Source: Thermodesulfobacteriota bacterium
GTDB lineage: Bacteria > Desulfobacterota > RBG-13-43-22
Reading direction: 5' to 3'
Length of the DNA stretch: 64,000 nt
Assembly: GCA_040755035.1 (NCBI GenBank)
Contig: JBFMBU010000313.1
Coordinates: 3,763-67,762 of the forward strand
Below are positions 3,328-61,311 of the stretch, one piece after another; within the stretch, counting starts at the first letter, position 1; each line of letters opens with the position of its first letter. The notes under the pieces were generated by a model. That model searched no databases and had not been told where the DNA came from. It saw nothing but the letters and a program-made list of their open reading frames with translations. The position numbers and the translations under genes were made by a program.

Positions 3328-4695
3328 TCAGATCTTTGGTTTGGGAAATTTTTCCAGGGCTTTTAAGGATTTTTGAATGTCTTCGTCAGGCAATTCGAAA
3401 TCAGCCAGTTTGCCTTCGAAGTAGGCATTGTAAGCCATCATATCCACCAGCCCGTGACCGCTCCAGTTCACCAGGATGGTCTTGGCCTTGCCTTCTTCCT
3501 TGCATTTTTTAGCCTCGGAAATAACCGCGGCTAGGGCATGGTTGGTCTCCGGGGCCGGGATATACCCTTCCGTTCTGGACCAGGTCACGCCGGCGGCAAA
3601 GGTTTCCAGTTGCTGTACGGCTCGGGGTTCAATCAGTTTATCCAGGATCAATTGAGAAACAATAGGAGCCATACCGTGATAGCGCAATCCACCGGCATGG
3701 ATTGGGGCCGGGACGAAGTTATGGCCCAGGCTATGCATGGCCAGCAAGGGGGTCATCTGGACCGTATCCCCGAAATCATAGACAAAGGGACCTTTGGTCA
3801 TGGTCGGGCATGAGGCCGGTTCTACGGCGATAATTTCAATCTTTTTCCCGCCGATCTTGTCCCGGACAAAGGGCAGGGCCATTCCGGCGAAGTTGCTTCC
3901 GCCTCCGGCACAACCGATGACGATGTCCGGATAGTCTCCGGCCTTCTGAAGCTGCTTTTGTGCTTCCAGGCCGATGATGGTCTGATGAAGCAATACGTGG
4001 TTCAAGACACTGCCCAGGGAGTACTTGCTGCCGGGATTGGTTACGGCATCTTCCACGGCTTCACTGATGGCAATCCCCAGGCTGCCCGGGGAGTTGGGGT
4101 CCTGTTCCAATATGGTTCGACCGGCCTTGGTGTCCGGGCTGGGGCTGGGGATACAGGTCGCTCCCCAGGTGTTCATCATCAGCCTGCGGTAAGGTTTCTG
4201 ATCATAACTGATACGGACCATATAGACCTTGATTTCCAGACCGAATAGGGCGCCGGCAAAACTCAGGGCACTGCCCCATTGTCCGGCACCGGTTTCAGTG
4301 GCAATGCGTTTGGTCCCGGAAATTTTATTGTAATAAGCCTGGGGAACGGCCGTATTGGGTTTATGACTGCCGGCCGGACTGACCCCTTCGTTTTTATAAT
4401 AGATCTTGGCCGGGGTTTGTAAAAAGGCTTCCAGGGCATACGCTCGTATTAAAGGAGAAGGACGCCAGATCAGGTATTTTTCCAGGACCGGTTCCGGGAT
4501 ATCGATAAACCTTTGGGGACTGACCTCCTGTTCAATAAGGGGCATGGGAAAGATGGGGGCCAGATCGTCAGGGCCGACCGGCTGACCGGTCCCGGGATGC
4601 AAAGGGGGTTGCATTCCATTGGGCATGTCTGGCAAAATGTTGTACCACTGGCGGGGCATTTCATCTTCGGTCAATAGAATTTTTTTGGGCACCAT
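3328..4695 (-). CDS. trpB2: TrpB-like pyridoxal-phosphate-dependent enzyme (tryptophan synthase beta paralog, TrpB2 type)
   Basis: Full-length match to the TrpB-like family layout: [16 protein letters not shown] lysine motif, [12 protein letters not shown], and a [10 protein letters not shown] glycine loop. Confidence 0.85.
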
Positions 4696-5914: not shown

Positions 5915-7244
5915 CTTTTAGAGAATGCATCACCAATCCGGTCAAGGTTTTGGGATAAAAAAAGGTGGATTTTCTGGGCATGACCAATGAGGCTTCAGCA
6001 ATACGCCGGACTTGTTCCACCGGGGTGGGGTTCAAAAAGAAGGCCAGTCGATCCCTGCTTTTTTCCACCGATTCCAAGGTCTGTAATCCATCATGGCAAT
6101 AGGTGATCATGTTTTCCCGGTCCAGATCCTCGGGTTTGATGCCCAGGATTTTTTGAAAGATAAGCCGGCTGAGAATCATGACATCCAGCCCATAAAGCAG
6201 GGGATGGAGGTCTTCGACCCAATGGCCTTTCAAGGCCTTATTTTTAAGGCTCAAAAGATAAATGAGATTGGTTTGAGGCAGGAAAAAGCCGAATGAAGGT
6301 GACGATCGCCCCTTTTCCTTTTGACGGGATTTTAACTCTGCCAGTATCTGTGACTTGAGGTCAGGGTTATAGGGGATTTTTTCAATGATAAAATCTTCAG
6401 CCAGTTTGTTTTCTAATGTGGAAGGGGTGAGTTCGATGGACCGGTTCAAGATGCGATGAACCGGAAAAATGGTCAAACCGGGGTCTTCCATGGGGCAGAA
6501 AAACATCAACGTATAGTTGAAAGATCCTGTTTCGACCAGCTCCGGAAATTGACCGAGCATATCGGCTTGAAAAGCCAGACTGGTCTCATAGCGGTGGTGA
6601 CCATCGGCGATATAGACCGTTTTATTGGAAAAATTTTCCATTACCCTTTTCAGAGCTGAAGGGTCGGAAATCCTCCAGAGTTGATGATGAACAGCATCCT
6701 GATCGACAAAGTCGATAAAAGGTTCGTTGGGACGCTTTTCGGAGAGGGTAGGAATGACCGATCCCTCCGGATCCAGATAAAAAGAAAAAATCGGGCAGAA
6801 TTGCATTCGGCAATGCTGAAATAATTCATACCGGTCTCGTTTGTGGGAAGAAAAAGTTTTTTCATGAGGACGAACTTTGCCGGATTCAAAACTTTCCAGT
6901 CTCAAAAGGGCAATAAATCCGTTCCGGACCCTTATCTCTCCCCCGGGGACCTTAAAGTGGATTGTATAAAGATAGATAGCCGGTTCTCGGTCCTGAATCA
7001 GAATATTATTCTCTTGCCATCGGGATAAATCCCGGGCGGCCCGGGTGTAACGGTTGTCTTCGGCGGTGTCTTGGGGGGAAGTCTTCCCAAAATCAATCCG
7101 TATAATATTATAGGGGTGCAACCGGTAATAAAAGCTCTGTCCTTCCTCATCGATCACGTCGTAGGGAGGGGTTAAAACCCGGGAGAGGTCTTCAATGAGG
7201 TTGTGATTATAGAGAATTCCCCGAAAGGGGGCGATATGGGCCAC
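5892..7244 (-). CDS. DUF1015 domain-containing protein
   Basis: N-terminus MAHIAPFRGILYN...LTPPYDVID and overall ~450 aa match the DUF1015 family. Confidence 0.8.
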   Translation of the reverse strand: MAHIAPFRGILYNHNLIEDLSRVLTPPYDVIDEEGQSFYYRLHPYNIIRIDFGKTSPQDTAEDNRYTRAARDLSRWQENNILIQDREPAIYLYTIHFKVPGGEIRVRNGFIALLRLESFESGKVRPHEKTFSSHKRDRYELFQHCRMQFCPIFSFYLDPEGSVIPTLSEKRPNEPFIDFVDQDAVHHQLWRISDPSALKRVMENFSNKTVYIADGHHRYETSLAFQADMLGQFPELVETGSFNYTLMFFCPMEDPGLTIFPVHRILNRSIELTPSTLENKLAEDFIIEKIPYNPDLKSQILAELKSRQKEKGRSSPSFGFFLPQTNLIYLLSLKNKALKGHWVEDLHPLLYGLDVMILSRLIFQKILGIKPEDLDRENMITYCHDGLQTLESVEKSRDRLAFFLNPTPVEQVRRIAEASLVMPRKSTFFYPKTLTGLVMHSLKGDESVSP

Positions 7245-40323: not shown

Positions 40324-41274
40324 ATGAAAATCGGAGTTGTCGGGCCGGGGGCCATGGGCTGCCTCCTGGCCGGAAAATTGGCCCTGGCCGGCAATGAGGT
40401 CGTCCTCCTGGACCACTATCCGGAACGGGTCCGAGTTTTAAATCGGTTAGGGGTGAGGATAGAGTCCGATAATCAGGTTGTAAAAGTAAAAATTCCCGTC
40501 ACCCTTGATGCTGAAGTTTTATCGTCGTCCGAGGTGATCCTGATCTGCGTCAAGGCTTACGATACTCTAACGGTAGCCCGGACCCTCCAAGGCCTTGCTA
40601 AAGGGCCCTATTTTTTAACCCTCCAAAACGGGGTGGGAAATATAGAGACCCTGGGAAAATATCTTCCCAAAAAAAAGATCCTGGGCGGTATTACCTCCCA
40701 TGGGGCCACAGATTTGGGTTCTGGAAGGGTACGCCATGCCGGCCGGGGAGAAACCTTTATCGGTTTCGGGTTCGATAAGGGGAAAAGAGAACCAAGAGTG
40801 GACCAGATCAGGGACCAAATTCTGGAAAGATTATCCCAGGCCGGGTTCTCGACCCGGTGGGTGCCGGACATTGAGAATCTCATTTGGAGTAAGCTATTGA
40901 TAAACATTGGAATTAACGCCTTGACCGCCCTGACTCGGCTCCCTAACGGTAAGCTGGTCGAATTTAACGGGGTCAAAGAGATCTTGGAAGAAGCCGTCAG
41001 AGAAGGGATGGAAATCGGTCTGAAAAAAGGCATACAATTTATCCAAGCCGACCCTGTGGCCCAGGTGAAGAAAGTCTGCCGGCTGACGGCCACGAACGTC
41101 TCTTCCATGCTCCAAGACATCCTCAAAAAAAGCAGGACAGAGATTGATTTTATTAACGGCGTTATCGTGCGGGAAGGACGTCGTTATGGAACGCCGGTGC
41201 CGGTCAACAGCCTGCTGACACGTCTGGTAAAAACCATTGAACAATCCTATGCTCAGACGGTAGCTGCCTGTTGA
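40324..41274 (+). CDS. panE: 2-dehydropantoate 2-reductase (ketopantoate reductase)
   Basis: MKIGVVGPGAMG Rossmann N-terminus and the ApbA C-terminal domain. Confidence 0.8.
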   Translation: MKIGVVGPGAMGCLLAGKLALAGNEVVLLDHYPERVRVLNRLGVRIESDNQVVKVKIPVTLDAEVLSSSEVILICVKAYDTLTVARTLQGLAKGPYFLTLQNGVGNIETLGKYLPKKKILGGITSHGATDLGSGRVRHAGRGETFIGFGFDKGKREPRVDQIRDQILERLSQAGFSTRWVPDIENLIWSKLLINIGINALTALTRLPNGKLVEFNGVKEILEEAVREGMEIGLKKGIQFIQADPVAQVKKVCRLTATNVSSMLQDILKKSRTEIDFINGVIVREGRRYGTPVPVNSLLTRLVKTIEQSYAQTVAAC

Positions 41275-41706
41275 CGGAGGGAAAACGGATTGGGGATAAA
41301 GGAAGATGGCGACCATCCTCCCTCATTCCCCCAATCCCGCTTTTTCCTGGATTATGATTGCGGTGCCGGTGAAGCGGCAACGGCTGTCTTGGCGGCTATT
41401 TTTTTCCTTTTTTGACGGCGATGCCGTCTCCGTTCGATTTCTCTAACCCTTTCAATCTTTTTGTGCTTTGCCAATGGATCACCCCCCTAAAAAATATTTT
41501 TCTTGCCGGAGAACGGGATAGGTCCCGGTTTTACCTTCCATCTATTATGGTAAGATATTTTGATCCTGTCAAGAAGGTTATCCCCTCTGATTTTTCTTCA
41601 AGATACCCGCGGTTTTGAAAAGGAGAAGGTTTGAAAAGAGGCCTTTTCTTGCGTCCTCCGATGTTAGTTTAAAGAAATAGATTCTGTAGTGATTTTCCCT
41701 CAATAT

Positions 41707-41742
41707 TGTGCACTTTCACATTTTTTTGTGCAAAAAAATGAA
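41707..41742. promoter_or_regulatory. Palindromic operator-like motifs: TGTGCACTTTCACA followed by T7-GTGC-A7
   Basis: Inverted repeats in the AT-rich island, ~90 bp upstream of the sigma-54 promoter. Confidence 0.4.
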
Positions 41743-41806
41743 GGGGACTAAAGCAATAAAAAACATAACCAATTGAAATTTAATATAATATTTTTTAAGC
41801 GTTAAT

Positions 41807-41826
41807 TGGCATTTTTTTTGCAAAAA
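41807..41826 (+). promoter_or_regulatory. Sigma-54 (RpoN) promoter candidate TGGCAT-N5-TTGCA, overlapped by the perfect palindrome TTTTTTGCAAAAAA
   Basis: GG and GC are separated by exactly 10 nt. It matches TGGCAC-N5-TTGCW at 11 of 12 positions. A small ORF with a strong RBS lies ~60 nt downstream. Confidence 0.55.
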
Positions 41827-41889
41827 ATTATTTTTATTACATGAGGATCCCAAAATAAGGGAGGGTTTTGGGGGAAAAGGAGATGGATA

Positions 41890-42132
41890 ATGAGGTTGCA
41901 GACCGAGTCATTAGTTGACCAGTTTTATTACTCGAACCAGGATAAAATGATTTCCTGTCCCTTTCAACCCGGAAACCTAAAAATTTCTAAAAAGGCCTGT
42001 CTGAAACGGTACAAAGCGGCCCAGCGTAGAAAGATGGAAGTCTTCCGGGTGGAAGATCTTTTTAACTATTTCATATCGCAGGGATTGTCTCGCTGCCAAA
42101 AATGTCCGATCATTGAAACTTCAGGGGCTTGA
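41890..42132 (+). CDS. Small hypothetical protein (80 aa, 4 Cys: C23, C37, C70, C73) downstream of the sigma-54 promoter
   Basis: AGGAG RBS 7 nt upstream of the ATG. No recognizable family. Confidence 0.3.
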   Translation: MRLQTESLVDQFYYSNQDKMISCPFQPGNLKISKKACLKRYKAAQRRKMEVFRVEDLFNYFISQGLSRCQKCPIIETSGA

Positions 42133-42324
42133 AGGGATTTTATTGTTCTAATTCGGTCCCTGTTGTCAGAGCAGTGGAGGTTCCGTTGCGGTTTTTTCAA
42201 AAATCGGGAGATGCCGATTTTGGAAGGCTGCCTGCCTATAGAATTCTATTCGTAAGTTACTGAGGGAAAACCCTGTCGGCGTCCTTCCTCCCGGTGAAAA
42301 CGGATAATCAATAAAGAAGGATAA

Positions 42325-42582
42325 ATGCTTCCAATTTTAATTTTATATATTGATAAAGAGTATAGCATCACCTATTGGATCATCGGGGGAGAAATGAAAA
42401 TCGTCTCCCCCTTAACCCTCTCCCAGGCCATTCAACTTTTAAAGAACGTCCAATTCGATCTGATTGTTTCCGACCCGTTACATATCGCCATCCTAAGGAC
42501 GGAGGATCCCGGAAGCAGGAAAAGTGAGAATTCCCCTATTTGGTTGGCGGCAGAATCCTTATCCCAACCTCCTTTACCTTGA
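42325..42582 (+). CDS. Hypothetical 85-aa ORF. It may be a fragment resembling a receiver-domain segment (DLIVSDP).
   Basis: ORF only, in an AT-rich region. Confidence 0.15.
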   Translation: MLPILILYIDKEYSITYWIIGGEMKIVSPLTLSQAIQLLKNVQFDLIVSDPLHIAILRTEDPGSRKSENSPIWLAAESLSQPPLP

Positions 42583-42614
42583 AGAAATCCATCCGGAGCA
42601 AAGACCAAGATGAT

Positions 42615-42669
42615 CAGTACAGAATCAGTACAGAATCAGTACAAAATCAGTACAAAATCAGGACAGAAT
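42615..42669. repeat. 11-bp tandem array, 5 units (CAGTACAGAAT x2, CAGTACAAAAT x2, CAGGACAGAAT), directly 3' of the aconitase-family gene
   Basis: Direct reading. Confidence 0.85.
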
Positions 42670-44618
42670 CAACCCCGTGCCTTTTGATTTCTCTTAAGGT
42701 AAGACAGTAGACCACCGGCCAGGAAAATTTCCATTTTTTCCGTGGGGACCAAGGCTTTTAAAAGGAAATTTTTCTTTTGGGTCAGGTTAAAGGCCTGGAT
42801 CTCTTTTCCCTGTTTGAGGGCTTTCAAGACCTGATGAAACTCCAACCAATCGTCTTGCTGCAGGGATAAATAATCCTTCGGTTCTAAAAAAACCAGAGGA
42901 AGGATCCCGTAATTGATCAGATTACTTAGATGGATTCTGGCAAAAGACTTGGCTACCACAGCACGGATGCCTAAAAACATAGGGGCCAGGACCGCATGTT
43001 CTCTTGAAGAACCCTGTCCATAATTTTCACCTCCGATAATGACGCCCCCCTGGGCCTGAGCGGCCCTTTCGGTAAAAGTTGGGTCCAGACGGGAGAAGGT
43101 AAAACGGGAGATGGCCGGGATGTTTGATCGAAACGGCAGAACCTCGGATCCTCCAGGCAGGATGTCGTCGGTAGAGATGTGGTCACCGGTTTTAATCAAG
43201 ACCCGGGCCTGGAAGGAAGCCGATAAAGGTTTACTAAGCGGGAGGGGCTTGATATTCGGCCCGCGGACAATTTTTATCCCTTGCGGATTGGGGGTGGGGG
43301 GGTGAAGCAGAGAGGCGGACTGGCTTCGGGGAGGGAGATTGGAAACCTTTGGCAGGGAAATTTTTTCCTTAAAAGGGTCGACCACTTCTCCCTTGAGGGC
43401 GATTAAAGCGGCGGTCAGCGGATTACATAAATAAACCCGGGCGGAGAGGGTTCCGCTCCGACCCCTGAAGTTTCGATTATAGGTCCTGAAGGAAATTCCA
43501 TTTTCCGGAGGCGCTCCCCCCATACCAATGCAGGGACCACATGCGGATTCCAGGAGACGGGCGCCGGAAGCCAGGAGTGCCCCGAGATCCCCTTTTTCAG
43601 CCAGGGCCTTCATGACTTCTCTGGAACCGGGATTGATTAAAAGGCTTAGGCCGGGGTGGATGGGTTTCCCGGCCAGGAGGGTGGCTACGGACTTCAGAGA
43701 AGCATAGGAGGAATTGGAACAACTTCCGATACAGACCTGGTGGACCTTCAATCCGATAATCTTTTTCAGTGGTACAATATTATCCGGGCTGAAAGGACAG
43801 GCGACCAACGGTTCCAGTTGATCGAGATTTATTTCTAAATGATCCTCATAGACCGCTTCCGGGTCAGGAGACAGCTTTATCCAATCTCTCGCCCGTCCTT
43901 GGGTCTCTAAAAAGGACCGGGTTATTTCATCGCTGGGGAACAGGGAGGTCGTGGCCCCCAGTTCAGCCCCCAGGTTACAAATAGTAGCCCTTTCGGTGGC
44001 CGAAAGGGTCTTAAGGGCCGGGCCTTGAAACTCATGTACCCATCCCACTCCTCCACGAACCGTCAGGCGACGGAGCAGTTCCAAAGCCACGTCCATGGCC
44101 GTAACCCAGGGTCTCTTCAGATGGCCGATAAGCCGAATACGCCTTACCTTGGGTCGAACAAGAAAATAGGGGTAACCGGCCATAGCCGCGGCGATGTCCA
44201 ATCCCCCGCAGCCCATAGCCAGCATGCCCAGACCGCCGGCGGTAGGGGTATGGCTGTCCGATCCCAATAGGACTTGACCTGGTCTGGCAAACCGTTCCAG
44301 ATGTACCTGATGGCAGATGCCGTTTCCGGCCGGGGAGAAGTAGGCCCCAAAGCGGGCGGCCGAGCTTTGCAGATAGAGATGATCATCCGGATTGCGGGAA
44401 TCCGCCTGAAGCGTGTTGTGGTCTACATAGGAAACCGCCAGGGGGACCTGTATGCGTTTTTTTTTGATGGCTTCAAACTGCAGATAGACCATGGTCCCGG
44501 TGGCGTCCTGAGTCAAGACCTGGTCTATTTTTAGGGGAATGGTTTCCCCGTTTGTTTTCTGGCCTCTGCTCACATGGTGATTGACAATTTTTTGAAAAAG
44601 CGTCTCCTGCATAACCAC
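42669..44618 (-). CDS. Aconitase-family hydro-lyase with fused large (LeuC-like) and swivel (LeuD-like) domains
   Basis: GSDSHT, the Cys ligand region GSCSNSS (one of the conserved Fe-S cluster ligands), and a C-terminal swivel domain. 649 aa. Confidence 0.7.
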   Translation of the reverse strand: MVMQETLFQKIVNHHVSRGQKTNGETIPLKIDQVLTQDATGTMVYLQFEAIKKKRIQVPLAVSYVDHNTLQADSRNPDDHLYLQSSAARFGAYFSPAGNGICHQVHLERFARPGQVLLGSDSHTPTAGGLGMLAMGCGGLDIAAAMAGYPYFLVRPKVRRIRLIGHLKRPWVTAMDVALELLRRLTVRGGVGWVHEFQGPALKTLSATERATICNLGAELGATTSLFPSDEITRSFLETQGRARDWIKLSPDPEAVYEDHLEINLDQLEPLVACPFSPDNIVPLKKIIGLKVHQVCIGSCSNSSYASLKSVATLLAGKPIHPGLSLLINPGSREVMKALAEKGDLGALLASGARLLESACGPCIGMGGAPPENGISFRTYNRNFRGRSGTLSARVYLCNPLTAALIALKGEVVDPFKEKISLPKVSNLPPRSQSASLLHPPTPNPQGIKIVRGPNIKPLPLSKPLSASFQARVLIKTGDHISTDDILPGGSEVLPFRSNIPAISRFTFSRLDPTFTERAAQAQGGVIIGGENYGQGSSREHAVLAPMFLGIRAVVAKSFARIHLSNLINYGILPLVFLEPKDYLSLQQDDWLEFHQVLKALKQGKEIQAFNLTQKKNFLLKALVPTEKMEIFLAGGLLSYLKRNQKARG

Positions 44619-44631
44619 TCCTCATTACGTA

Positions 44632-46440
44632 TTAGATGTCTGACTCATTCTCTAAGGGGAGCACCACGGTCATGGTCGTACCCCGGGGGGAGGTCTCGAC
44701 GCGGATATCCCCATTATGGTCCTGTATCAATTTATAAGAAACGGCCAATCCCAGACCGGTACCTTTCTTCTTGTTGGTGATAAAAGGACGGAAGAGATTT
44801 TCTTTAATCTCCGGTTCTATTCCTGGGCCGGTGTCGGTGATGCGGATCAGGACCGAATCCTGATCCCGTTCGGTAGCCAGGGTCAGTGATCCTCCTTCAG
44901 GCATGGCTTCAACGGCATTCTTTGTCAGGTTCAACAGAACCTGCTTGATCTGCTCCGGATCAAAATTAAACTCAGGCAGGGAGGGGGCCAGTTCGGTTTT
45001 AACCTCTATGTGCTGTTCGGTGAATAAAGGATTGAAAAGATGGACCTGGTCCCGCACCATATCATTGATCTGGGCCTTTGATTTTTTCGGAATGGTCGGG
45101 CGGGTGAAATCACGGACATCGATCAAAATTTTTTCCAGCCGGGCGATTTCCGAGGTAATAATTTCGAGCTTGGCCTTTTCTTTCTCCCCCAGTTGGGGTG
45201 AGCGCTTGAGTTGTCCGGCGAGTCCACCGATGGCCATCAGGGGATTTTTTATCTCGTGGGAAACATGACCGGCCATGGAACCTACAGCGGCCAGCCGTTC
45301 GGAGTGAACCAGTTTTTCCTGGGAGCGACGCAGTTCTTCCGTTTTATTATCTACTTCGATTTTGAGGTATCGGGACCAGCGGTTGGAGATAAAAACAAAG
45401 AGGCCGGTGCTGAAAATGACGATCAATTGAAAGATAACGATTAAAAAGGCCTGATCCATAATAAGGCTGCGGACCAGTCCGGAGACCTCTTTCACCGGGG
45501 CGACCACGGCTACAGACCAAAACTCCGCAGCCGGCCCCAGCCTTTTTTGCCCTTTCCGGTCAGGTGTTTCATAAAAAGGGATGGGGGTGTAGGCTACCAG
45601 TTTATCGGTAACTTTGATTAATTCCCGGTGCCACCCGGTCACATAAGTGGAAGTGCCCTCTTTTTTCTTTAACAGCTCATTGCGGGTCAGATCGTCAATT
45701 TTTTTATAGGAAATCCTGGGATTCTTCAGACCGCGGACGACAAAGATGTTTCGGCCGACAAATTCAGGATCGAAATGATCCATAAATATCCCATTGGAGT
45801 TGATGATCCAAGGGTACCCGGATTTACCGGAGATGACCCCCTCGTCGGCTTTCTTGGCCATATGGATGGCGTCGATTATGAAAACCAAGGCCCCGGCGAT
45901 TTGATCCTGCCTTTTGTTTTCAAAAGGTACGGCCATAGGAAGGACCCATTTGCCTCCCTGGGCCATGGTCCTTCCCACCCATACCCGATGGTCCCCCGAT
46001 TCGGATTCCCTGTAGGGGATCAGTGTCGGGGTGAGGGGCAAGGGAATGGATCCCGCGGTCCATTCCGGGGAACGGACCTGACCGATAACCCGGCCATCCC
46101 GGTCCAAAGCCATAATGGCCAAGAGATCTCCCGGCATCAGGTTTTGAAAGGGAGAAAAGATCCTTTCCGGTTGCAGGACAATATCAAATAGTTCCTTTTC
46201 CCAAATCTGGCGCAGGCCCAGAAGGGTGATCTGTAGATGGGTCATCTGGTTTTGGACGTGATCGGAAATCTTTCGGGCCAGGATGAGCTGTTGTTGGTTG
46301 AATTGGTCGGAAAGCACCTGAGAGATCTGCCGCCAAGTGGAGTAGCCCACGAAAACGATCAAAATCGTCAATAGGACAGCCAGGGTGTATACCAGGGGGA
46401 GGGTTTTTCTTACTAGAAAGGGGATGGGTATCTTTTTCAT
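44632..46440 (-). CDS. Sensor histidine kinase with periplasmic Cache-like domain, HAMP/coiled coil, HisKA and HATPase_c
   Basis: H-box GHVSHEIKNPLMAI and N/G boxes (NLTKNAVEAM, DTGPGI, GTGLGL). The start at 46440 forms an ATGA overlap with the upstream lptF/G-like stop. The track start at 46566 is less likely. Confidence 0.75.
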   Translation of the reverse strand: MKKIPIPFLVRKTLPLVYTLAVLLTILIVFVGYSTWRQISQVLSDQFNQQQLILARKISDHVQNQMTHLQITLLGLRQIWEKELFDIVLQPERIFSPFQNLMPGDLLAIMALDRDGRVIGQVRSPEWTAGSIPLPLTPTLIPYRESESGDHRVWVGRTMAQGGKWVLPMAVPFENKRQDQIAGALVFIIDAIHMAKKADEGVISGKSGYPWIINSNGIFMDHFDPEFVGRNIFVVRGLKNPRISYKKIDDLTRNELLKKKEGTSTYVTGWHRELIKVTDKLVAYTPIPFYETPDRKGQKRLGPAAEFWSVAVVAPVKEVSGLVRSLIMDQAFLIVIFQLIVIFSTGLFVFISNRWSRYLKIEVDNKTEELRRSQEKLVHSERLAAVGSMAGHVSHEIKNPLMAIGGLAGQLKRSPQLGEKEKAKLEIITSEIARLEKILIDVRDFTRPTIPKKSKAQINDMVRDQVHLFNPLFTEQHIEVKTELAPSLPEFNFDPEQIKQVLLNLTKNAVEAMPEGGSLTLATERDQDSVLIRITDTGPGIEPEIKENLFRPFITNKKKGTGLGLAVSYKLIQDHNGDIRVETSPRGTTMTVVLPLENESDI

Positions 46441-47516
46441 TGCCGGATATTCAGGAATAAATAACCGCCGACCAAAAGAAAAAGCAGGTTGGAAGCCCAG
46501 GCGGCCCAGAGGGGGGGAAAGGTCCCGGAAAGACCCAGGGAACGGGAAAAGCCGAAAAAGATCCAATAGAGAAAGGCCAGGAACAAACTGCCGACGATCC
46601 CTTGGGCGACCCCGATGCCTTTTTCCTTACGCAAGGCCAGGGCGATACCGAAGAGGGCCATGATTATGCAGACAAAAGGAAAAGACAAACGGATATGTTT
46701 TTCCACAATATAAGGGGTGGCGTCATATCCCTCCCCTTGAACCTTGCGGATGGTTTTCCGCAGTTCCTGGTAGGTCATTTCCGCCCCGGTTTTTTCCTGA
46801 TAGCGAAAATCCTCAGGCGTTTCAGAAAGGAAAAGGACTTTTTCAAGAAACGGTTCGCTGCCGGAGGTGCCGTCAGGCGAGAAGGTCTGATACAGTCCAT
46901 TTTTAAAGGTCCAACCGCCGTTTTTCCAGACCACGGATGCCGCATCCAGTCGAGATTGTAATTTAAATCCATGGTCGAAAAAATGGAGGGAAACCCCCTC
47001 AGCGGTTTGATCTTTAAAATTAAAACGGCTGAAAGAATAAATAGCCTGATGTCCTTTATACCAGATCTTTTCTTGAAGCAGCACGGCCCGGGGTTCGATT
47101 TTTTTAACCCGGACGTTCCAGATTTCCTGGGCCCGGCCTTGAGCAAAAGGGACCATCACCTCCCCCAGGATCAGGAGAGAGATGGTTGAGGCCATGGCCA
47201 GAAGTAGGATGGGAAAGGAGAGGCGGCCCATATTGATCCCGCTGGATTTGAAGGCGATAAGCTGGTTGTTCTTGGAAAAAAACCCAAACGTGAGCTGGGT
47301 GCCCATTACTATGGCCACCGGGATCAGTTGTTTGATGATAAAGGGTAGGGTATAGGCAAAGTATTGCATCATGACCCTTGTGGACACACCGGCTTCGCTG
47401 AAGTCCTTGAGTTTTCCCATGACATCCAGCAGGAGGAAGAGGAAGATAAATATACCCAGGCAGAGGAGGGTCATTTTCAGGAATTCCCGGGATATATAAT
47501 GACTGATAATTCGCAT
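46437..47516 (-). CDS. LptF/LptG-family lipopolysaccharide export permease
   Basis: MRIISHYISREFLK N-terminus and a YjgP/YjgQ six-TM layout with a periplasmic beta-jellyroll insert. Confidence 0.8.
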   Translation of the reverse strand: MRIISHYISREFLKMTLLCLGIFIFLFLLLDVMGKLKDFSEAGVSTRVMMQYFAYTLPFIIKQLIPVAIVMGTQLTFGFFSKNNQLIAFKSSGINMGRLSFPILLLAMASTISLLILGEVMVPFAQGRAQEIWNVRVKKIEPRAVLLQEKIWYKGHQAIYSFSRFNFKDQTAEGVSLHFFDHGFKLQSRLDAASVVWKNGGWTFKNGLYQTFSPDGTSGSEPFLEKVLFLSETPEDFRYQEKTGAEMTYQELRKTIRKVQGEGYDATPYIVEKHIRLSFPFVCIIMALFGIALALRKEKGIGVAQGIVGSLFLAFLYWIFFGFSRSLGLSGTFPPLWAAWASNLLFLLVGGYLFLNIRQ

Positions 47517-61175: not shown

Positions 61176-61311
61176 GATGGTCTCGCAAAAAGTCGTCGAA
61201 GGCCCATTATAGTCATTCCGGTGAAAACCGGAATCCAGTAATTTCAGCAAGATATAGACCTCTGGACCCCGGCTTTCGCCGGGGAGAAGACTTTTTGCAA
61301 GTCCATCTATT
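61176..61311. repeat. Repeat family B-related element bounded by imperfect 19-bp terminal inverted repeats (GATGGTCTCGCAAAAAGTC ... GACTTTTTGCAAGTCCATC), containing hairpin CCCCGGCTTTCGCCGGGG
   Basis: Direct reading. It has a MITE-like architecture and lies in the convergent intergenic region. Confidence 0.6.

Follow-up and report, generated by a model that had tools for sequence, protein, structure and literature searches.

Gene content of the panE-aconitase gap

This analysis concerns a 1394-nt gap between panE and an aconitate hydratase gene in a stretch of 64,000 nucleotides (hereafter the window) from contig JBFMBU010000313.1 of a Thermodesulfobacteriota metagenome-assembled genome (MAG; GenBank assembly GCA_040755035.1). 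Its main subjects are a small gene lying in this gap, here called ORF80 after the 80 amino acids of its open reading frame (ORF), and the sigma-54-type promoter predicted upstream of it. The genes that delimit the gap, and those of its right-hand part, are as follows (positions are those of the window):

40324-41274, plus strand: panE (TIGR00745)
41878..41882, plus strand: Shine-Dalgarno sequence AGGAG, 7 nt before the ORF80 ATG
41890..42132, plus strand: ORF80 (MEW6188409.1, AB1585_22050, annotated as 'hypothetical protein'), 80 amino acids
42325..42582, plus strand: ORF85 (MEW6188410.1, AB1585_22055), 85 amino acids
42669-44618, minus strand: aconitate hydratase gene (NF005558)

With a GC content of 0.31-0.32 across positions 41550-42000, against ~0.50 in the flanks, the gap is indeed richer in AT than its surroundings, as a first-pass annotation of this DNA had described. 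The comparison with the flanks that it had suggested further maps the dip to promoter and enhancer DNA rather than to ORFs. The same annotation had called the region gene-poor, a description that we find contradicted: about 45% of the gap consists of three conserved small ORFs, namely a minus-strand gene of the DUF6800 family, ORF80 and ORF85, two of which had been missed. All three are intact and under purifying selection (ratio of nonsynonymous to synonymous substitution rates, dN/dS, about 0.1-0.2). In the deposited MAG, both ORF80 and ORF85 are annotated as hypothetical proteins. The 80-amino-acid ORF with its AGGAG ribosome-binding site, already proposed in the first pass, was borne out at a spacing of 7 nt, and the sequence around its Shine-Dalgarno element, AAAGGAGAT, is conserved in L004, the closest of the related loci (designated by L numbers) with which the window was compared.

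Conservation of the region in relatives, another check suggested at the outset, was examined next to that of the protein. The gene order panB-panE-(DUF6800)-ORF80-ORF85 is kept across MAGs, usually followed by genes for aconitase (convergent) and a histidine kinase, and synteny from panB to the aconitase gene extends over at least eight MAGs at saturated synonymous divergence (dS). Searches of plasmids and phages with the module returned no homologues, and no mobility genes flank it within the window. The locus is ancestral rather than horizontally acquired. Taken jointly with the sigma-54 mechanism and the role of ORF80 discussed below, we consider it likely that the AT-rich stretch, far from being an empty island, serves as control region for a conserved module of small genes. 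The left part of the gap forms a separate unit, made up of the divergent DUF6800 mini-gene with its own consensus sigma-70 promoter.

The -24/-12 element and its upstream blocks

The elements on which the prediction of an enhancer-dependent promoter is based lie upstream of ORF80, where UAS stands for upstream activating sequence and IHF for integration host factor:

41706..41737, plus strand: UAS-like block ATTGTGCACTTTCACATTTTTTTGTGCAAAAA, an invariant block in a five-locus alignment (A2)
41766..41778, minus strand: IHF-like site TTTCAATTGGTTA, with one mismatch to WATCAANNNNTTR, which we take to be the IHF consensus
41807..41822, plus strand: sigma-54 -24/-12 element TGGCATTTTTTTTGCA, supported by motif and conservation
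41814..41827, no strand: perfect palindrome TTTTTTGCAAAAAA (T6-GC-A6) over the -12 element, within T8-GC-A6

The -24/-12 element reads TGGCAT-TTTTT-TTGCA, with its GG doublet at 41808-9 and its GC doublet at 41820-1, exactly 10 nt apart. Motif and spacing are thus as first reported, and the end of the element lies at 41822 instead of 41821. The IUPAC pattern TGGCAYN5TTGCW has a single exact match in the 64-kb window and none in 100 shuffles, and the position of the element predicts a transcription start at ~41833. Ten distinct loci, nine of them syntenic and the tenth being the non-syntenic L010, have a high-scoring sigma-54 site (a score of 19 of 20 or more, or a variant differing in one base) in the same orientation, 83-340 nt 5' of their ORF80 orthologue (L001 and L013 represent the same region). 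The form TGGCA(C/T)-N5-(T/A)TTGC(A/T) is kept in L001/L013, L002, L003/L012, L004, L011, L014 and L028/29, and the variant elements TGGAAT-N5-TTGCA and AGGCAC-N5-TTGCA occur in L030 and L010, respectively.

In alignment A2, conservation is confined to three blocks held at fixed spacing, with divergent DNA between them: ATTGT..TTCACATTTTTTTGTGCAAA (41706-41737, centred at ~-109), AAAAATATAAC-N3-TTGAAAT (at ~-62), and the -24/-12 element itself. Divergence at synonymous sites is already high in these comparisons, dS being ~1.0 relative to L004, the closest locus, and saturated relative to the others. The first block contains the dyad-bearing core TTCACATTTTTTTGTGCAA (41715-41733), with alternating TGTG/CACA half-sites, centred ~-109 from the predicted start and ~90 nt upstream of the -24/-12 element. 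The block is unique within the window even when up to 3 mismatches are allowed; the exact 14-mer CACATTTTTTTGTG of its core recurs in L001/L013, L002, L004 and L011 (five loci, four distinct sites), and variants of the block are found in L003, L014, L028 and L030. We presume from these features that the TTCACATTTTTTTGTGCAA block is a binding site for a bacterial enhancer-binding protein (bEBP). To our knowledge, TTCACA-T7-GTGCAA is not a described bEBP site, and we know of no bEBP consensus that it matches. The second block, AAAAAYATAAC-N3-TTGAAAT, includes the IHF-like site (TTTCAA-N4-TTA on the minus strand), whose offset from the -24 element, -41 or -40, is the same in 6 of the 10 loci. Because sites of this kind are frequent in AT-rich DNA, 36% of shuffled versions of the region containing one by chance, it is the fixed position that counts as evidence here.

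An enhancer-dependent promoter of textbook layout has its UAS near -110, an IHF site near -60 and a -24/-12 element. Such promoters, with IHF-assisted looping, include Pseudomonas putida Pu, Klebsiella nifH and E. coli glnHp2, and the window promoter resembles them in its exactly spaced GG and GC doublets, its distal dyad ~100 bp upstream and the A/T-rich IHF-like site in between. Judged by this conserved arrangement, the sigma-54 element is very probably part of a genuine enhancer-dependent promoter of canonical architecture. The proposal of an enhancer-dependent small gene made in the first-pass annotation is accordingly strengthened by the conservation of -24/-12, UAS-like and IHF-like blocks over 10 loci, together with the existence of homologues adjoining bEBP genes (see below).

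The palindromes of the region fared differently. The perfect T6-GC-A6 palindrome over the -12 element, to which regulatory meaning had been attached, is present in the window and missing from every orthologue; it is not conserved in A2, and the loss of 3 nt relative to L004 accounts for it (TTGCATTTAAAAA -> TTGCAAAAAA). It was rejected as an operator for want of conservation, and is probably a feature specific to the window and incidental. The further palindromes reported upstream were both located: TGTGCACTTTCACA lies at 41708-41721, and T7-GTGC-A7 at 41721-41738, inside a perfect inverted repeat with 10-nt arms, CATTTTTTTG/CAAAAAAATG, at 41719-41740. The A7 arm of the latter palindrome is common only to the window and L004.

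Between promoter and start codon, the distance varies from 83 to 340 nt across loci through unconserved insertions, giving 5' untranslated regions (5'UTRs) of ~57 to ~310 nt whose sequence is not conserved. This variation makes a conserved leader structure or riboswitch unlikely, and scans of the region against Rfam, at gathering thresholds as well as permissive ones, likewise returned no credible RNA family. In two loci with a longer 5' leader, gene calling places a 52-amino-acid ORF after the sigma-54 promoter and before ORF80 (L028, 945-1103; L029, 1916-2074).

ORF80, ORF85 and their possible place in signalling

ORF80 has 38 homologues at 50-96% identity. Invariant among its close homologues are M1, P24, Q26-P27-G28-N29-L30, I32, A36-C37, K39-R40 and F58, with C23, C69 and C72 near-invariant. 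A profile search of 1.84 billion representatives extended the family to 150 clusters (50% identity) at E<=1e-3, and in an alignment of 137 sequences C37 is invariant, and C23, Q26, P27, G28, L30, R40, C69 and C72 are at least 90% conserved. The product is a basic protein with a Q-P-G-x-L motif, a long Lys/Arg-rich helix and the cysteine pattern C-x13-C-x31-C-x2-C (C23, C37, C69, C72). Thus, of the two Cys pairs ascribed to it earlier, the four cysteines are real, and only one CxxC pair exists, the other two residues being 14 positions apart. Selection on the protein is strong, with a dN/dS of 0.09 relative to L004 (dS ~1) and saturated synonymous sites relative to more distant loci. All genome matches belong to Thermodesulfobacteriota, Syntrophales or 'delta proteobacterium' MAGs, many of which carry two paralogues.

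Queried as a single protein, as a 39-sequence profile and as a 137-sequence profile, ORF80 gave nothing above noise in Pfam, NCBIfam, PHROGs, PADLOC or the PDB, and no member with a name or with further domains came up when 5.8 billion proteins were searched with a profile. Three apparent fusions were set aside, P0051 and P0113 as low-complexity, repetitive and eukaryotic-looking sequences that are most likely spurious matches, and P0118 (ABC_membrane + RsbRD_N + ORF80-like) as a probable merged gene call. The literature yielded nothing on a comparable sigma-54-dependent Cys-rich small protein, nor on DUF6800. The ORF80 family, with at least 150 clusters, is uncharacterised and lies outside Pfam, NCBIfam and the PDB. 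Structure prediction, a check proposed earlier for the 80-amino-acid protein, produced an AlphaFold2 (AF2) model with a predicted local distance difference test score (pLDDT) of 70, in which a helix (3-15), a hairpin (20-33) and a long basic helix (34-63) precede a poorly modelled CxxC tail; it matched no solved fold.

With its ~80 amino acids, four cysteines and C-terminal CxxC, ORF80 resembles zinc-binding anti-sigma (ZAS) factors such as RsrA, the C4 fingers of DksA/TraR, and zinc ribbons, and like these Cys-rich zinc regulators its family occurs in a regulatory context, an extracytoplasmic function (ECF) sigma factor being encoded two genes upstream in L031. Unlike them, it lacks HxxxCxxC, has a single CxxC knuckle and matches no zf-HC2, DksA or zinc-ribbon family of Pfam above noise. 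Assignment as a ZAS anti-sigma factor (zf-HC2) was rejected, since no member has a His four residues before C69 and none matches in Pfam; assignment as a rubredoxin or zinc ribbon was likewise rejected on account of the single CxxC, Pfam zinc ribbons matching only single members at E>=0.008. The predicted topology of helix, hairpin and long helix would also differ from the four-helix anti-sigma domain.

ORF85 comprises a conserved core of 58 residues (LILYID..Y..TYWII...QAIQLLKN.EFDLIVSDP) and a variable tail, and its dN/dS is ~0.2. Of the 11 loci with an ORF85 gene, 10 have it after ORF80, among them the non-syntenic L010, and one, L027, has it before ORF80. This placement, which is that of the receiver gene in L017 and L018, and the FDLIVSDP motif suggested a degenerate receiver; the tests did not bear this out. 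No Pfam family, Response_reg included, matched at E<=1, and hhalign assigned a probability of 14% to the match with one receiver and of 4.8% to that with a receiver profile, the alignment covering only QAIQLLKN.EFDLIVSD, opposite the alpha2-beta3 region. The CheY-like receiver (PF00072) was therefore rejected as an identity for ORF85. The AF2 model (pLDDT 58) was unusable, being too poor for a fold search. One feature lies between the two genes:

42133..42235, plus strand: structured spacer with a terminator-like hairpin (42171-42189 + GGTTTTTTCA; z = -2.6)

The hairpin may possibly act as a partial terminator in this organism. An equivalent terminator between ORF80 and ORF85 has no clear counterpart in other loci, for which reason the two genes are probably co-transcribed. 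In the spacers of L001 (~6290-6345), L002 (~3640-3690), L011 and L030, a short motif, GGTTTTAACC(C)AATAGC, recurs that is not found in the window.

The first-pass annotation had noticed no bEBP gene nearby, and this held across the entire 64-kb window, where neither the GAFTGA and ESELFGH motifs nor tblastn with two bEBPs, receiver domains included, revealed one. Relatives are informative in this respect. In L010 (Desulfobacca sp.), a histidine kinase gene and a bEBP gene of the architecture response regulator receiver-PAS-AAA+(GAFTGA)-HTH_8 lie upstream of the ORF80-ORF85 pair, at a distance of 430 nt, and the spacer contains two tandem TTACAGTTCTGTAA palindromes and GGCAC-N5-TTGCA. In L006, the ORF80 homologue is directly downstream of a bEBP gene, the best candidate element there being TGGTAC-N5-TTGTA (GT instead of GC). 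As in the classical sigma-54 systems, the activator gene is thus immediately upstream in these two relatives, unlike in the window, where the activator of the predicted promoter is unlinked. From L010 and L006 we conclude that sigma-54 control appears to be a recurring trait of the ORF80 orthologous group, in which the UAS sequence, and presumably the activator too, differs between loci. Genes for bEBPs also lie 2-7 kb from an ORF80-like gene in L017, L022 and L023, and the following arrangements with other regulators were found:

L017: the start codon of the ORF80-like gene and the stop codon of a stand-alone receiver gene overlap (ATGA); 30 nt downstream lies a HisKA/HATPase kinase gene, and 2 kb further a bEBP gene
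L018: receiver, ORF80-like gene and PAS kinase, in the same order as in L017
L021: a LuxR-type response regulator gene divergently upstream of the ORF80-like gene
L019/20: a Crp-type regulator gene divergently upstream of the ORF80-like gene
L031 (25% identity): an ECF sigma factor gene (two genes away, same strand), a CBM48 protein gene and an ORF without assignment upstream

Gene neighbourhood and cysteine conservation together lead us to infer that ORF80 may be a metal-binding protein (Cys4; Zn or Fe-S) serving as an accessory or connector of two-component and bEBP signalling. Small connector and feedback proteins of such systems are known, among them PmrD, SafA, HrpV/HrpG and PspA, and by analogy ORF80 would likewise be a small protein switched on by one system and encoded beside or inside signalling operons (L017/L018). 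It differs from them in having no sequence or fold similarity to any, and in its Cys4 signature, which is absent from all of them. In the mechanism that we propose, sigma-54 RNA polymerase would bind 41807-41822 as a closed complex, a bEBP encoded elsewhere in the genome would bind the TTCACATTTTTTTGTGCAA block ~109 bp upstream, and a bend at the IHF-like site at ~-62 would bring it to the polymerase, ATP hydrolysis then opening the promoter. Transcription from ~41833 would yield an mRNA with a ~57-nt leader and the AGGAG ribosome-binding site, encoding ORF80 and probably continuing into ORF85, so that ORF80 would be made only once its activator is switched on. These steps are taken from textbook sigma-54 biology; the motifs, their conservation at fixed spacing, the purifying selection on both ORFs and the gene neighbourhoods are what was directly seen here.

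A bolder version of this proposal, which we hold to be rather improbable, casts ORF80 as a Cys4 effector module of a new, metal-dependent kind, in effect the output half, now detached, of a response regulator that was split. It would be translationally coupled to a stand-alone receiver and a kinase in L017 and L018, and would here have been rewired as the sigma-54 target of an unlinked bEBP and paired with ORF85 as a degenerate receiver-derived partner.

Several observations weigh against sigma-54 control and a signalling role for ORF80. No bEBP, receiver or rpoN gene is present in the 64-kb window, so that the activator would have to be encoded elsewhere, and a bEBP gene lies within 8 kb in only 5 of about 20 loci, which is near the estimated background in bEBP-rich genomes. 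The functional inference draws on just gene neighbourhood and cysteine conservation, and the mediocre ORF80 model (pLDDT 70) matches no known fold. Several paralogues have no recognisable sigma-54 site, which makes sigma-54 control a trait of the orthologous group and not of the whole family, and one paralogue (L005/L015), in an IS91/SSB/resolvase context (SSB, single-stranded DNA-binding protein), has a sigma-70-like promoter. Finally, a looser weighted score as high as that of the window element (at least 19 of 20) is reached somewhere in 51% of block-shuffled 64-kb windows; the motif by itself is therefore not decisive, and it is conservation that decides. The last two points also speak for a real ORF80 gene that is transcribed from a promoter of the sigma-70 type within the AT-rich DNA. 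One such site, TTGGCA-17-TATTTT at 41806-41834, overlaps the sigma-54 element with 9 of 12 matches, and AT-rich DNA readily yields sites of this kind (8 observed versus 2.9 expected). On the other hand, its putative -10 hexamer TATTTT is not conserved, and the bases that are conserved in 10 loci are the sigma-54-diagnostic GG and GC doublets at their exact spacing. Neither the conserved distal block nor the IHF-like site with its constant distance would have a role at a sigma-70 promoter, and bEBP genes adjoin the homologues in L006 and L010. Altogether, we regard a sigma-70 promoter as quite unlikely.

A more serious rival, albeit one that we still judge unlikely, accepts sigma-54 control and makes ORF80 a non-regulatory small metal or redox protein (electron carrier, metallochaperone or stress protein) tied to the aconitase, pyruvate:ferredoxin oxidoreductase (POR) and pantothenate genes. 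The four invariant cysteines fit this view, as do the retention of the gene beside that of aconitase, an Fe-S enzyme, or beside POR/ferredoxin genes in L028, and the thioredoxin-like ORF downstream in L010. Paralogues, however, leave the metabolic context and yet stay near regulators, one of them translationally coupled to a receiver gene; few electron carriers would be so strongly basic and have a long Lys/Arg-rich helix; and a single CxxC knuckle comes without a rubredoxin or ferredoxin match in Pfam. That the main product might be a regulatory RNA (a small RNA, sRNA, or a dual-function RNA) to which the ORF is secondary was part of the first-pass annotation. The unit is short and stands alone, and in this window the ORF is followed by a terminator-like hairpin, but purifying selection at the protein level is strong while synonymous change is saturated, Rfam gave no match, and neither the 5'UTR, in length or sequence, nor the hairpin is conserved; the sRNA reading finds no support in these results and seems very improbable. 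Least credible of all is a decaying, horizontally acquired islet with the ORFs as remnants, also suggested earlier. It could appeal to the local GC dip to 0.31 and to the one paralogue in an IS91/resolvase/SSB context, but is already contradicted by the panB-panE-gap-ORF80-ORF85-aconitase synteny described above, by the intactness of three small ORFs under purifying selection, by the placement of the dip in promoter and enhancer DNA, and by the lack of plasmid or phage matches.

On the reading that we favour, namely sigma-54 control of a signalling accessory protein, an apparently empty AT-rich gap turns into three real small genes and a well-defined enhancer-dependent promoter, illustrating how small-protein genes and control regions are under-described in uncultured Thermodesulfobacteriota. 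The regulatory mechanism is ordinary; it is the protein family, plausibly linked to signalling, that is unstudied. As the regulatory architecture is textbook, the advance is incremental unless ORF80 proves mechanistically new. The repeated wiring of its family into two-component, bEBP and ECF-sigma loci makes it a fair candidate for an accessory protein of signalling that is new, and the conserved UAS provides a concrete handle for finding its activator.

The DUF6800 gene and other elements of the gap

The remaining features lie towards the two ends of the gap:

41278..41348, no strand: long hairpin, a probable bidirectional terminator (RNA fold -32.4 kcal/mol, z = -2.7)
41352..41474, minus strand: DUF6800 gene (PF20607), 40 amino acids, very basic (MAKHKKIERVREIERRR...)
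41544..41572, minus strand: sigma-70-type promoter of the DUF6800 gene, TTGACA-17-CATAAT, 11 of 12 matches
42613..42671, no strand: 11-nt tandem repeat ATCAGTACAGA, 5.4 copies, 93% match

The 40-amino-acid ORF scores 30.5 bits against PF20607 (gathering cut-off 25; E = 4e-7); its likeness to the Pfam family consists in this score above threshold, and the family is without assigned function. Its TTG start is kept in all syntenic loci and is preceded by a G-rich ribosome-binding site, and the ORF is found by tblastn at 69-80% identity in L001-L004 with a dN/dS of ~0.1. The exact sequence of its product was not in the protein collection searched, for which reason the gene is probably uncalled in the deposited MAG. 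Its promoter is divergent from that of ORF80, and TTGACA...(C/G/T)ATAAT is also present in L001, L002, L003 and L004. In composition (MAKHKKIERVREIERRRHRRQKRKK...), the product is like small ribosome- or nucleic-acid-associated proteins. The hairpin at 41278-41348, between the panE stop codon (41274) and that of the DUF6800 gene, probably serves both genes as a bidirectional terminator.

At the other end, the ATCAGTACAGA repeat lies precisely at the stop codon of the aconitase gene, in the gap where this gene and ORF85 converge, and outside the promoter and gene module; it is missing from the closest related locus, L004. Adjoining the aconitase gene is a histidine kinase gene (44632-46566, minus strand), whose syntenic counterparts in L001 and L003 have the domains dCache/HisKA/HATPase; as no receiver domain is detectable in the window, we regard its product as an orphan kinase.

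A dispersed palindromic repeat, cattccggcgaaagccggaatccagg ... gaccccggctttcgccgggga, was also observed in the window (61212-61287, a single copy), L003 (5330-5660), L006 (5500-5800) and L021 (~6520-6600). An Rfam scan of the L003 copy returned no family. The repeat is inserted upstream of ORF80 in two unrelated loci, and has the look of a miniature inverted-repeat transposable element (MITE) or a repetitive extragenic palindromic (REP) sequence.

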